A DNA stretch of 64,000 nucleotides, taken from contig JAPLMX010000171.1 of the NCBI GenBank assembly GCA_026386805.1, positions 8,176 to 72,175 of the forward strand, read 5' to 3'. Positions 46,879-52,960 of the stretch are shown piece by piece. Position 1 is the first letter of the stretch, and every line of letters begins with the position of its first letter. The notes beneath the pieces are model-generated. The model saw only the letters and a list, made by a program, of their open reading frames with translations. It did not search any database and was not told the DNA's origin. The stretch is from Phycisphaerae bacterium (GTDB lineage Bacteria > Planctomycetota > Phycisphaerae > Sedimentisphaerales > Anaerobacaceae). The position numbers and the translations under genes were made by a program.

Positions 46879-48321
46879 ATGAGTTTGCTGCGAAGAATCG
46901 TTGTCGTCGGCAGAGTCCCACAGATTCAAGCCGTCGCGCAGGAGCTGGCCCGCGAGGTGTTCGTGGCCGACGATCTGGGCGAGGCGGCCACTATTGTGTC
47001 TACAGTGGGTCCTGATTTGACGATATTCGACGGGACCTGGACGCCGGCCCAGGTTCGCGACCACCTCCAGCAAATCGCGGCCGATTCGACCCAGCCCGGC
47101 CGGACGGTCGTCGTCACCTCCGACGGCGGCCCCTTCAGTGAAAGCGACTACCGCCAGGCGGGGGTCTCGGACTGCTTCACGGGACCAGCGGACCTCACGC
47201 GTCTCCGAGACTTCGCCGCCGAGCTCGACGCGGCGGCCCGCCGGCCCGCCGACACGGGAATCGAGGCCCAGACGTACTTCGTGGATGAGACCGCCGCCGT
47301 TGCCCTGGCGGGTTGCAGTCCGGCGATCCATCTTGCCTTGCAGATGATCAAACTCGTCGCCGCCAGCCGCTGCAATCCGGTTCTCGTCACCGGCGATACC
47401 GGCACCGGCAAAGAGGTCGCGGCGCGAGCCGTCCATCACCTCCGACACCCCGGCCAGCCGTTCGTCGCCGTCAACTGTGCCGCCCTGACGGCCAACCTGC
47501 TGGAAAGCGAGCTCTTCGGGCACGTGAAAGGCTCGTTCACCGGCGCCGACCGGGACAAGACCGGGCTGCTCGAAATGGCCGAAGCGGGCACGATCTTCCT
47601 CGACGAAATCAGCGAGATGCCGCTCGATCTGCAGGCCAAGCTCCTGCGCATCCTGCAGGAAAAGACTTTCCGTAAAGTCGGCGGCGTCCGGGACCTCGAC
47701 TGCAAGGCCACGATCATCGCCTCCAGCAACCGCGACCTGAAGAAGGAGGTTCGCGAGAAGCGGTTCCGGCAGGACCTGTACTACCGCCTGAACATCTGCC
47801 CGATCCAGTTGACGCCCCTGCGGTCCCCCCAGCGGCGCCAGGACATCCCATTGTTGGCCACCTACTTCCTGAAAACGTCGAGCATCTGCTCGCATCGAGA
47901 GAACCGCGTCGCTTCCATCACCCAGCTCGCCTTGGAAGCCCTGGGCCGGTATGACTGGCCCGGCAACGTGCGCGAGCTGCGCAACGTGATCGAGCGGGCC
48001 ATTCTGCTCGAGACGACGGACAAGATCGGGCTGAGCAGTATCATCATCGACCCCATCGACAGCGATGAACCGCCGCACGCGGGTCTCGGACGAAGCGGGA
48101 AGGACTTCTCGCTGGAGAAGGCCGAACGCGAGCTGATCGCCCGCGCCCTGCACGAGACCGGCTGGCAAAAGACGCAGGCCGCCGCCCTGCTCGGCATCAC
48201 GCGCGCCACCCTCTACGCCAAGGTCAAGCAATACGACATCCGCAAAGAGGGGCCTGCCGTGGAGGAAGTACGGCGGGCCGCTCCCCAGCCCTTTGAAGCG
48301 GTAGGCGCCGCCGCCTACTGA
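46879..48321 (+). CDS. Sigma-54-dependent transcriptional activator (EBP 1, FleQ/FlrA-like, atypical receiver)
   Basis: Start [14 protein letters not shown]+ core [34 protein letters not shown] (GAFTGA variant), [35 protein letters not shown]. Fis-type [28 protein letters not shown]. Confidence 0.9.
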
Positions 48322-48470
48322 CCTCCCCCGGGACGGTCCCGGCAAAAACACAGACGTTCTCCACCTCCCCGTTCTCCAATGCGTCAGAGCCTTCGTGCGT
48401 GCTTGTCGAGCCGCAGAGGGTGTGTCAGAAAATCGGGCGAGCCGTATAGAATCCGGACACGGGGAGATAG
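48152..48470 (+). repeat. Direct repeat copy A (attL-like): last 170 nt of EBP 1 plus 149 nt downstream
   Basis: Hand alignment with 52643-52960 gives about 22 differences over ~319 nt (about 93%), with one 1-nt indel. Confidence 0.9.
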
Positions 48471-48721
48471 GGAATTCCGGGGACACCTTACTTATTTCGG
48501 TCTTGAATTGAGTATGCTGTCCCCAGATATCAGTCACGCGGGCCAAATGCGTTCATGCTGCTGCTGCATTCATTGAACACGTACTCTCTTACTGCTTCTG
48601 TAATCATCCTGAAACCGCTAACAAATGTCGAGGAATGCGGCATCGGCAGCAGACACCACAGTGTAATCCGCACCCGATCTTCTCTCTACCAAGACGCCTT
48701 CCTCGCCGATCTCATTACACT

Positions 48722-48746
48722 CGCGAGACCCGCCGCGGGTCTCGCG
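48722..48746 (-). terminator. GC-rich hairpin downstream of the AAA_13 gene (no U-tract)
   Basis: cgcgagaccc-gccgc-gggtctcgcg, a perfect 10-bp stem ~30 nt after the stop at 48776. Confidence 0.35.
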
Positions 48747-48775
48747 TAGGAGTGCAAGCGATTGTTCGCCCTCGG

Positions 48776-52238: not shown

Positions 52239-52343
52239 CCGGTTCTCCTTCGCTTACAGCGGGGATCATAGCATGGCACGTCGTGCAAATCAAGAGTGTC
52301 GGCAAAAAAAACAATGACCCGCATGAAGGCTAAATGGGGTTTC

Positions 52344-52498
52344 AGCCACAGAGGACACCGAGGTCACAGAGACCAAGAAGGTAAGAAGGTGGGAAACCAA
52401 GAAGGTCGGAAGGTGCCCAGAGAAGAAGGTCGGAACGTCTCGCGTTCTGGCCTTCCCACCTGCGCTCCTCTCTGTGTTCCTCTGTGATCTCTGTGGCT
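52344..52498. repeat. Palindromic element (family H): arms agccacagaggacaccgaggtcacagag / ctctgtgttcctctgtgatctctgtggct around aagaaggt repeats
   Basis: The arms are imperfect reverse complements. The centre contains four aagaaggt(n) words. Confidence 0.75.
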
Positions 52499-52642
52499 TG
52501 CTTCCTTTCTTAGCTTTTGACCGGGCCGTTGAAAAGAAGGCCCGTATCTCGTCGTTTTCCGCGACCAGCATCGCCGCCGGGATCTGGGAGGCCCGACCGC
52601 GGCGTGCGAAGGCACAGGCAGATGAGAATGTCTACTTCATGG

Positions 52643-52812
52643 ACGAGACCGGCGGGCAGAAGACGCAGGCCGCCGCCCTGCTCGGCATTACGTGCGCCAC
52701 CCCCTACGCCAAGGTCAAGCAATACGACATCCGCAAAGAGGGGGCTGCCATGGAGGAAGTACGGCTGGCCGCTCCACAGCCCTCTGAAGCTGTAGGCGCC
52801 GCCGCGTACTGA
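52643..52812 (+). pseudogene. Displaced, decaying 3' fragment of the EBP 1 gene (HTH region)
   Basis: Translates as [53 protein letters not shown]. Compared with the intact copy it has R-to-C and L-to-P changes inside the HTH. No AAA+ domain lies upstream. Confidence 0.8.
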
Positions 52813-52960
52813 CCTCCCCCAGACGGTCCCGGCAAAAACACAGACGTTCTCCACCTCACCGTTCTCCAATGCGCCGAGGCCTTCGTGCGTGCTTGTCGAG
52901 CCTCAGAGGGTGTGTCAGAAAATCGGGCGGGCCGTATAGAATCCTGACACGGGGAGATAG
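52643..52960 (+). repeat. Direct repeat copy B (attR-like)
   Basis: See copy A. The reading frame is preserved as far as the same stop position (52810-52812). Confidence 0.9.

Follow-up and report, generated by a model that had tools for sequence, protein, structure and literature searches.

A probable degenerate integron with a candidate defence cassette, lodged in a duplication of a flagellar sigma-54 activator gene of a Phycisphaerae bacterium

The activator gene, its truncated second copy and the empty sites in relatives

Contig JAPLMX010000171.1 of a Phycisphaerae bacterium (assembly GCA_026386805.1) carries, within the 64,000-nt stretch analysed here (the window, whose positions serve as coordinates), a flagellar locus in which the gene of a sigma-54 activator is followed by 4.2 kb of DNA of different composition and then by a truncated second copy of the activator's 3' region (Table 1). 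Our preferred reading of this intervening segment, the island, has a probability of roughly 0.6. It holds that the segment is a degenerate integron with a cassette-borne candidate defence gene, that it sits inside an insertion-duplication, and that the whole was imported into this genome by homologous recombination. The activator itself, which we call enhancer-binding protein 1 (EBP1), is intact: it has the AAA+ sigma-54 interaction domain (Sigma54_activat in Pfam, E = 2.6e-61), AAA_lid_14 and a C-terminal Fis-type helix-turn-helix (HTH) domain, HTH_8, and so has the domains that define a bacterial enhancer-binding protein.

Alignment with MAFFT and a repeat finder place the two direct repeats at 48149/48152-48470 and 52640/52643-52960, with about 93% identity and 22 differences, among them a single 1-nt indel right after the stop codon; neither method found a third copy within the window. 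Copy A completes EBP1. Copy B belongs to an orphan that ends at the equivalent stop, retains only the HTH (HTH_8, E = 2.3e-5) and has lost the AAA+ domain, and in which W to G, R to C and L to P changes fall on HTH positions that are invariant in 26 orthologues. The differences between the copies are spread over the three codon positions as 5/3/5, which fits neutral decay. Between the repeats the windowed GC content is 0.53-0.59, as against 0.63-0.69 outside them.

The orphan extends further than the repeat. Directly upstream of copy B, and in the same frame, lie about 27 codons that match many orthologues at codons ~112-139, between the N-terminal domain and the AAA+ domain (tblastn). The best match to this linker is in L089 (68%, E = 6e-7, and 82% in DNA), as against 37% for the window's own EBP1, whose linker ends GATGAGACC. 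A GAGACC common to both marks the point where the linker passes into ...ETGWQKT of the HTH. Together, the linker codons and this junction indicate that copy B is the leftover of a second activator copy minus its AAA+ domain. The orphan's start, at codon ~112, abuts the edge of the integron platform described below, and the original duplication would have measured ~1.26 kb, starting at activator codon ~112 and ending 11 nt beyond a conserved palindrome downstream of the gene. A sequence-only reading of this DNA had reported the ~319-nt duplication with its roughly 22 differences, the intact gene and the orphan ending at the equivalent stop, the lower GC content, and the position of the island between the activator and the sigma-54 promoter at 53016, and all of this holds. 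Its R to C and L to P changes in the orphan also hold, with W to G to be added, but the orphan is not the mere 3' end that it was taken for.

For comparison, orthologous loci were collected from species-representative genomes (80), from metagenome contigs (80) and from three close relatives. Most of those with enough flank keep the order FlgE<-FlgD<-|EBP->TPR->P310->EBP2, where TPR denotes a tetratricopeptide-repeat protein and P310 a 310-aa protein, with an estimated 100-540 nt between the activator stop and the TPR gene start. Exact look-ups by protein sequence gave no match for the TPR protein; for the activator, tried with two choices of start, they gave none either, though its sequence is on record as P0121. 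The activator is followed directly by the TPR operon, such that the site is empty, in ~160 loci, including the close relatives L087 and L088; the only occupied loci are the window and L086, a 78-kb contig of a different metagenome (activator protein identity to the window 89% for L086, 87% for L087 and 90% for L088). These comparisons support a lineage-specific insertion of foreign DNA whose flanking duplication keeps the activator gene intact. Two further loci were considered as islands and rejected. L055, from a distant relative, has a 2.6-kb gap (11480-14070) at the same intergenic site, filled by a single 507-aa gene on the opposite strand, without duplication or recombinase, and is an ordinary inserted gene; L029, which lacks the TPR gene, is a rearrangement.

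L086 has the same architecture as the window and the same two right-hand junctions, with different cargo and a shorter repeat (179 nt at 91%, as against 319 nt at 93%). In addition, the Logan contig L001 (SRR20698646) is 100% identical to the window over 48338-51910, which spans the junction between copy A and the island. An independent contig across the left junction, together with the architecture of L086, indicates that the arrangement is not an assembly artefact. The exact 24-nt junction between island and orphan had 0 matches in a metagenome contig collection that does not include these contigs; L086 has this junction.

The TPR-protein open reading frame (ORF, 53046-55895), beyond which the operon continues, is preceded by a sigma-54 promoter of the form TGGCAC-N5-TTGCT, a pattern with four occurrences in the window where chance would give 0.04. 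A 37-nt inverted repeat, TGTCAGAAAATC-N8-CGTATAGAATCCTGACA, is nearly unchanged in most of ~30 aligned Phycisphaerae intergenic regions (L002-L028, L086-L095) and is not kept in a few, e.g. L004 and L089. Its end in the window lies ~65 nt before the promoter, and it is probably the binding site, or upstream activating sequence (UAS), of the flagellar activator encoded just upstream. The palindrome in copy A, with its T to G change, is a stranded duplicate. Because EBP1 is whole and the consensus palindrome still stands beside the TPR promoter, the insertion should be neutral for flagellar regulation. The L086 orphan (13326-13610) is an uninterrupted 94-codon frame with a GTG start and an intact Fis-type HTH, and its product, a small protein, could bind DNA at the UAS in competition with the activator.

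The integrase remnant, the attI-like site and the cassettes

Read along the minus strand, the island consists of a promoter-like region, an 84-codon tyrosine-recombinase fragment that is the probable remnant of an integron-integrase gene (delta-intI), an attI-like site, cassette 1, a 58-nt attC, cassette 2 and a decayed attC. The remnant matches the integron-integrase model TIGR02249 (E = 1.6e-34, model positions 244-314 of 315) and the IntI4 structure 2a3v (residues 251-318, E = 9.6e-25) far better than Xer recombinases (XerD, 2.6e-21). The matching part spans about 70 codons, and with three quarters of the gene gone, the IntI-specific extra domain among them, its TIGR02249 score falls short of the 265 bits set as cut-off for the family. 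With 84 codons left it is not a functional integrase; the remnant in L086 has an additional 78-nt deletion, and the window holds no further intI gene.

The remnant is part of a shared module, from about 52570 to 51840, that comprises a T-run, the TTGATT-17-TATGAT element, a ribosome-binding site, the 84-codon ORF and the attI-like region, and ends ...CAGTCTAATTACTG. This module also occurs beside a GH3 glycosidase and a major facilitator superfamily transporter gene (L169-L172) and beside ferredoxin and P5CR genes (L173-L175). The 71 nt upstream of delta-intI are 94-96% identical between the window and each of these two contexts, and 90% identical between those two. As expected of an attI site, unrelated sequences lie beyond the conserved end ...ATGCGGATCAGTCTAATT(A/G)(C/T)TG, and the cassettes there start GTAGCT (window), TTCGGC (L086 and L173) or TTAGAC (L169).

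The non-integrase N-terminal junction of the remnant is common to four database proteins (P0241, P0242, P0244 and P0245), and the contigs looked up for P0241 and P0242 are unrelated genomic contexts. The same truncation and junction in unrelated loci imply that the integrase was truncated before it reached this locus. Being older than the arrival, the truncation in turn implies that this enzyme did not place the island here. The best 120 database relatives of the fragment (P0241-P0360) are all short, at 68-147 aa, and among them at least five different, unrelated N-termini are joined at nearly the same point of IntI; some lie on contigs of 9-142 kb, such that contig ends cannot account for all of them. 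In the window, the module is interrupted by a 223-nt insert missing from L086, L169 and L173. It has the terminal inverted repeats AGCCACAGAGGACACCGAGG and CCTCTGTGATCTCTGTGGCT, contains direct repeats of 24 nt, and resembles a miniature inverted-repeat element inserted into the T-run that precedes the remnant.

Whether the remnant is simply a pseudogene is put in question by its pattern of divergence. Across the window (51984-52309), L169 (5239-5600) and L173 (2727-3052), differences in the ORF fall on codon positions as 4/7/21, with a dN/dS of 0.16-0.20. They cluster in nt 100-200, and dS is 0.28-0.43, far above the 6-8% divergence of the flanks. This clustering and the high dS would fit conversion of patches from functional integrase alleles at least as well as they fit a functional mini-gene, and delta-intI may be either of the two. 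We also considered a reading, which we regard as doubtful, in which remnant and attI form a working integrase-less platform that spreads between loci and takes its first cassettes through an integrase acting in trans, and in which the mini-protein may modulate IntI. For example, as the C-terminal catalytic and subunit-exchange segment of IntI, the mini-protein might poison IntI tetramers and thereby stabilise local cassettes. The codon-position bias and dN/dS argue for this reading, as do the conserved 71 nt, the short relatives, and the presence of four different first cassettes on one truncated platform.

Cassette 1, an identical copy of whose gene is present in the Logan contig, is predicted to encode a membrane-anchored receiver-domain protein. 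Its start, GTAGCT, is one base off TTAGCT, the complement of its own attC R''. The 58-nt attC that follows folds at -15.5 kcal/mol (z = -5.1), with R'' paired to R' in the centroid structure and unpaired bases in the stem, and homology with another contig, L084, begins exactly at GTTCGCC.

The gene in cassette 2 matches Pfam AAA_13 (5.4e-35) and the PADLOC profile PDC-S06 (PDLC04895, 2.2e-74 over residues 1-682). Its homologues are 60-92% identical in protein, carry the JGI label 'wobble nucleotide-excising tRNase', and, where a source is named, as it is for a few, belong to several phyla (Methylomirabilia, Elusimicrobia, Acidobacteria, Ignavibacteria). In DNA, homology to other contigs (88-94%) covers only 48721-51141, the gene with very short flanks; in those contigs the gene stands alone in unrelated neighbourhoods, with no integrase nearby. 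A dN/dS of 0.22-0.35 indicates purifying selection and fits a useful accessory function, and from its profile matches the gene is plausibly an anti-phage candidate. The attC of this cassette lacks a GTT core in the window; the L082 version is complete and ends GTTGGGC (fold z = -4.5 and -5.1, respectively). Its R'' reads GGCGAAC, exactly complementary to the G+TTCGCC that opens the cassette at its 5' end, and complementarity of this kind between R'' and the cassette start is a signature of attC x attI recombination. The two sites are read as attC because each can form an imperfect hairpin with unpaired bases, because they carry the cores expected of attC (R'' ...AAC and R' GTT..., the latter lost from the window's AAA_13 site), and because homology with other contigs breaks at the cores. 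Both cargo genes of the window are intact. For the 400-aa cargo gene of L086, Pfam gave no match, and the genes that accompany AAA_13 in other contigs are not similar to it.

At the left terminus, the ~40 nt that follow the 20 nt shared with L086 lie in opposite orientation in the two genomes. In L086 (11502-11690), these ~40 nt belong to a palindromic structure of ~190 nt that overlaps the stop codon of the 400-aa gene. The terminus was also considered as a repeated transposon end and rejected, since GGAATTCCGGGGACAC occurs once in the window and elsewhere only in L086 and in L001, the Logan copy of the same stretch. A scan of the region against Rfam gave a single sub-threshold chance match.

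Table 1. Positions of the features at the activator locus and in the island (window coordinates).
Feature	Position	Strand	Remarks
EBP1, intact flagellar-locus sigma-54 activator, 480 aa	46879..48321	+	NCBI MCX5645696.1, 100% identical
Repeat copy A	48152..48470	+	last 57 codons of EBP1 and 149 nt downstream; includes UAS-like copy
Displaced UAS-like copy	48423..48459	+	TGTCAG-N25-CTGACA pattern, right half-site CGGACA (T to G)
Island left terminus	48471..48530	+	starts GGAATTCCGGGGACACCTTA; terminal 20 nt common to L086
Putative attC of AAA_13 cassette	48704..48770	-	R'' GGCGAAC, G+C-rich hairpin, decayed 3' half
Cassette 2 gene, 759-aa AAA_13 ABC-type ATPase	48776..51055	-	CPFC motif; RloC-like; PADLOC PDC-S06
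Putative attC between cassettes, 58 nt	51119..51176	-	R'' AGCTAAC overlaps stop codon of receiver (REC) gene; R' GTTCGCC
Cassette 1 gene, 215-aa protein (MCX5645698.1)	51171..51818	-	N-terminal hydrophobic helix, C-terminal REC domain; Response_reg 9.7e-14
attI-like region after integrase stop	51840..51983	-	ends ...ATGCGGATCAGTCTAATTACTG, then cassette-specific sequence
delta-intI, 84-codon 3' remnant of integron-integrase gene	51984..52238	-	TIGR02249, IntI4 2a3v
Promoter-like TTGATT-17 nt-TATGAT and AAGGAGAA ribosome-binding site	52239..52309	-	upstream of delta-intI
Insert resembling a miniature inverted-repeat element, 223 nt	52310..52532		20-nt terminal inverted repeats; window only
Upstream end of shared delta-intI platform	52533..52569	-	homology ends ~29 nt in (L169-L172), ~45 nt in (L173-L175)
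Inter-domain linker remnant	52570..52642	+	IAAGIWEARPRRAKAQADENVYFMDET; joined to HTH region at GAGACC microhomology
Repeat copy B	52643..52960	+	coding as far as 52812 (HTH and tail, in decay); the rest is downstream DNA with UAS-like repeat
Consensus UAS-like inverted repeat	52913..52949	+	TGTCAG-N25-CTGACA; beside promoter; 100% identical to L021
Sigma-54 promoter of TPR operon	53016..53031	+	TGGCAC-N5-TTGCT
Putative imported tract, approximate	47745..52910		3' ~580 nt of EBP1, copy A, island, orphan up to UAS-like repeat

Arrival of the island and competing explanations

By its host genes, the window is closest to L088, then to L087, with L086 farthest. For example, the activator body is 91.5% identical to L088 and 89.1% to L086, the TPR gene 91.3% and 81.3%, and the intergenic DNA beside the orphan 69.5% and 66%; FlgE is 84.6% identical to L086, the L088 value being unavailable. 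The non-coding and pseudogene blocks of the island, in contrast, are 92-95% identical between the window and L086. The activator gene itself changes affinity at about 47745. Of the informative sites upstream of this point, 175 join the window to L088 and 66 to L086; downstream of it, 20 and 53 do so (maximum chi-square 48.7). EBP1 segment 47745-48149 is 93.8% identical to L086 and 89.1% to L088, and in the 5' part the order is reversed (87.0% and 92.6%). On the right side, similarity to L088 resumes at 52910, at the UAS, and dominates from 53000 onward. Island blocks at 92-95% beside flanking genes at 81-85%, together with the breakpoint at ~47745, point to a tract of ~5.2 kb that was imported by homologous recombination. 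This 3' segment of EBP1 is 88.9% identical to L089, as against 84.2% for the same segment of L088, and both it and the linker remnant lie nearer to L089 than do the sequences of the window's own clade.

We propose that integron-bearing DNA inserted, with duplication of the 3' part of the activator gene, in another, related and unsampled lineage. Because of the duplication, the activator would have stayed whole and the downstream sigma-54 operon would have kept its UAS and promoter. The AAA+ domain of the second copy would then have been deleted at the GAGACC microhomology, and the redundant copy would have decayed afterwards. The ~5.2-kb tract would have entered the window lineage by a double crossover in flanking homology, and the L086 lineage probably received the structure likewise. 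The ~400 nt of foreign-type sequence upstream of the repeat fit such import. Since then, gene conversion appears to have moved short patches between the repeats: when all four copies in the occupied genomes are compared, four sites pair window A with L086 B and one pairs A with A, while four sites just past the stop codon group by genome. This mosaic, though made up of few sites, suggests gene conversion, or excision and re-integration, between the repeats. As part of the same joint reading, at the same probability, the low-GC segment would be a decayed chromosomal integron and not a self-integrating island.

Several points weigh against this reading. First, the third-position bias in the divergence of delta-intI is not expected of a plain pseudogene unless patches were copied from functional alleles. 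Second, the attC and attI sites were identified by eye, folding and homology breakpoints, and the R' cores GTTCGCC and GGTAGCT deviate from GTTRRRY. Third, the 1.26-kb primary duplication is a reconstruction, the breakpoint analysis draws on three relatives, two occupied loci are known, and a genome of the proposed donor lineage was not found. Finally, the grouping of window A with L086 B is explained only through gene conversion or excision and re-integration.

The last of these points is where a Campbell-type origin has its appeal. Here a non-replicating circle, or aberrantly excised DNA as in lambda-dgal, carrying the integron remnant and the 3' two-thirds of an activator gene, would have integrated by a RecA-dependent single crossover with the resident activator gene, and excision with re-integration at other crossover points would then have shuffled variants between the repeats. 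Such an event yields exactly the observed order of copy A, island and copy B, with B truncated at the element boundary, and would account both for the swapped pattern at the four sites and for a linker remnant foreign to both hosts. Against this, the L086-like tract begins ~400 nt upstream of the repeat, in sequence that copy B lacks, such that a circle bearing only the 319-nt repeat is insufficient; both copies share one tail type, unlike the tails of the nearest empty relatives; and neither a circular form nor a second integration site was seen. We therefore consider this origin possible, though on balance unlikely.

An island with its own integrase, as proposed in the sequence-only reading, would have inserted site-specifically at the 3' end of the activator gene, bringing a replacement 3' end, leaving attL and attR, and later being immobilised by truncation of its integrase. 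Foreign DNA does lie between direct repeats, the gene is made whole by copy A, part of a recombinase gene is found near copy B, relatives have empty sites, and the foreign linker means that some activator sequence came with the island. Thus the claim of a foreign insertion with a flanking duplication stands, as does its expectation of empty sites in relatives, L087 and L088 among them. The mechanism, however, is not supported. The fragment is probably of the integron-integrase type, and integron integrases move cassettes, not islands. It is also not directly adjacent to copy B, as had been stated, but ~400 nt away, and it occurs with the identical truncation in unrelated loci, which contradicts the proposal of a later immobilisation. 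The repeat, 319 nt long at 93% identity, continues for 149 nt after the stop and is what remains of a more extensive duplication; the imported sequence reaches 400 nt upstream of it; and the apparent crossover positions differ between the two occupied genomes, with no fixed point. Of the features of a site-specific island, the locus has an empty target and lacks a cognate integrase and a short identical core with a fixed crossover. Nor was a version of the same element with an intact integrase found in searches of relatives of the AAA_13 gene and the integrase fragment, which returned the gene by itself and short integrase relatives throughout. We regard this explanation as very improbable.

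A little less probable again is a tandem duplication of the 3' part of the activator and its downstream DNA that came first, with the integron fragment landing later at the duplication junction. The orphan starts inside the activator and ends in register with copy A, as at a tandem junction, but two independent events at one point would be needed, the island termini abut both ends of the duplication exactly in both occupied genomes, and a duplication without foreign DNA, which the sequence-only reading had named as the observation that would overturn it, is present in 0 of ~160 relatives. A chimeric assembly or mis-join at the repeated sequence, the other such observation, is a concern for a metagenome-assembled genome whose repeats share exact stretches longer than typical k-mers, but given that L001 crosses the left junction at 100% identity, that L086 repeats the architecture on 78 kb from a different metagenome, and that the copies differ at 22 positions in a biologically coherent pattern, it can be set aside as extremely improbable.

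The window contains further repeats. Inverted repeats of 187 nt, 95% complementary (11442-11628 and 14682-14868), flank 3.05 kb; related copies of 30-75 nt lie at 21110-21184, and sigma-54-type promoters lie just beyond one arm (14873-14888, minus strand; 15209-15224, plus strand). A palindromic family of ~41 nt, GGGGACCCCAAACGCGACC...GTCGCGTTTGGGAACCC, has about ten copies (7229, 18065, 21678, 25503, 53082, 53115, 53244, 53609, 54406 and 55684), six of them within the TPR-protein ORF. The 7-nt unit AATCCG(A/C) and its complement form intergenic arrays throughout the flagellar region (19242-19290, 23271-23429, 25588-25738, 39460-39532, 41100-41186, 52978-53012 and 58135-58197), and the array at 52978-53012 stands just upstream of the sigma-54 promoter at 53016.

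Relation to known systems and significance

The element belongs to known kinds, being in our reading a degenerate integron within an insertion-duplication that spread by homologous recombination. Pseudogenes of intI are common, making up about a third of the chromosomal copies in a survey of genomes (Nemergut et al., 2008, PMC2426708). So are cassette clusters that have no integrase (clusters of attC sites lacking integrases, CALINs), some of which retain an intI_Cterm remnant (Cury et al., 2016, PMC4889954). As in a degenerate chromosomal integron or CALIN, an intI remnant lies beside attC-bounded cassettes, and cassette content varies between close relatives. Unlike these, the element in the window has only two cassettes and is embedded in a duplication of a flagellar regulator gene, and its truncated platform has spread over unrelated loci with different first cassettes. 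In Treponema integrons, intI is transcribed towards attI and the cassettes (PMC3607928). Likewise, the integrase remnant, the attI-like site and both cassette genes of the window read in the same direction; the host, however, belongs to the Planctomycetota, class Phycisphaerae, and since its integrase is not intact, it should not be taken to be active in recombination. Integron cassettes that encode anti-phage systems have been described ('Mobile Integrons Encode Phage Defense Systems', bioRxiv 10.1101/2024.07.02.601719; PMC12614218). The single-gene cassette of the window resembles them in matching the candidate family PDC-S06, and is also LmuB-like. It differs in its integrase-less platform and its uncultured Phycisphaerae host, and its defence role is a prediction from sequence.

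Two further comparisons concern the duplication. Genomic islands and prophages that insert at gene 3' ends carry a replacement 3' end (attL/attR), and usually do so at tRNA or tmRNA genes. The locus resembles them in that foreign DNA lies within direct repeats of the target's 3' end, the gene is intact and relatives have empty sites. Unlike such islands, its repeat is far longer than an att core, only 93% identical, and reaches the regulatory site; there is no cognate integrase, the repeat is what is left of a larger duplication, and acquisition appears to have been by flanking homologous recombination. Campbell integration or homology-facilitated illegitimate recombination leaves an insert bracketed by duplicated target, one copy complete and one truncated. 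The window shows this same bracketing, with the primary event placed, in our model, in an unsampled lineage.

Direct repeats together with an integrase fragment are no proof of an attL/attR island; here a dead integron in an insertion-duplication, later handed from lineage to lineage by ordinary homologous recombination, probably gives the same picture. For the uncultured Phycisphaerae, the locus is a record of integron cassettes and attC sites, and of a gene order like that in Treponema, and its UAS-like palindrome is a testable putative binding site for the flagellar activator. Finally, a candidate defence cassette can lodge harmlessly in a conserved flagellar regulon, since the duplication leaves the activator gene whole and keeps UAS and promoter together at the operon that follows.

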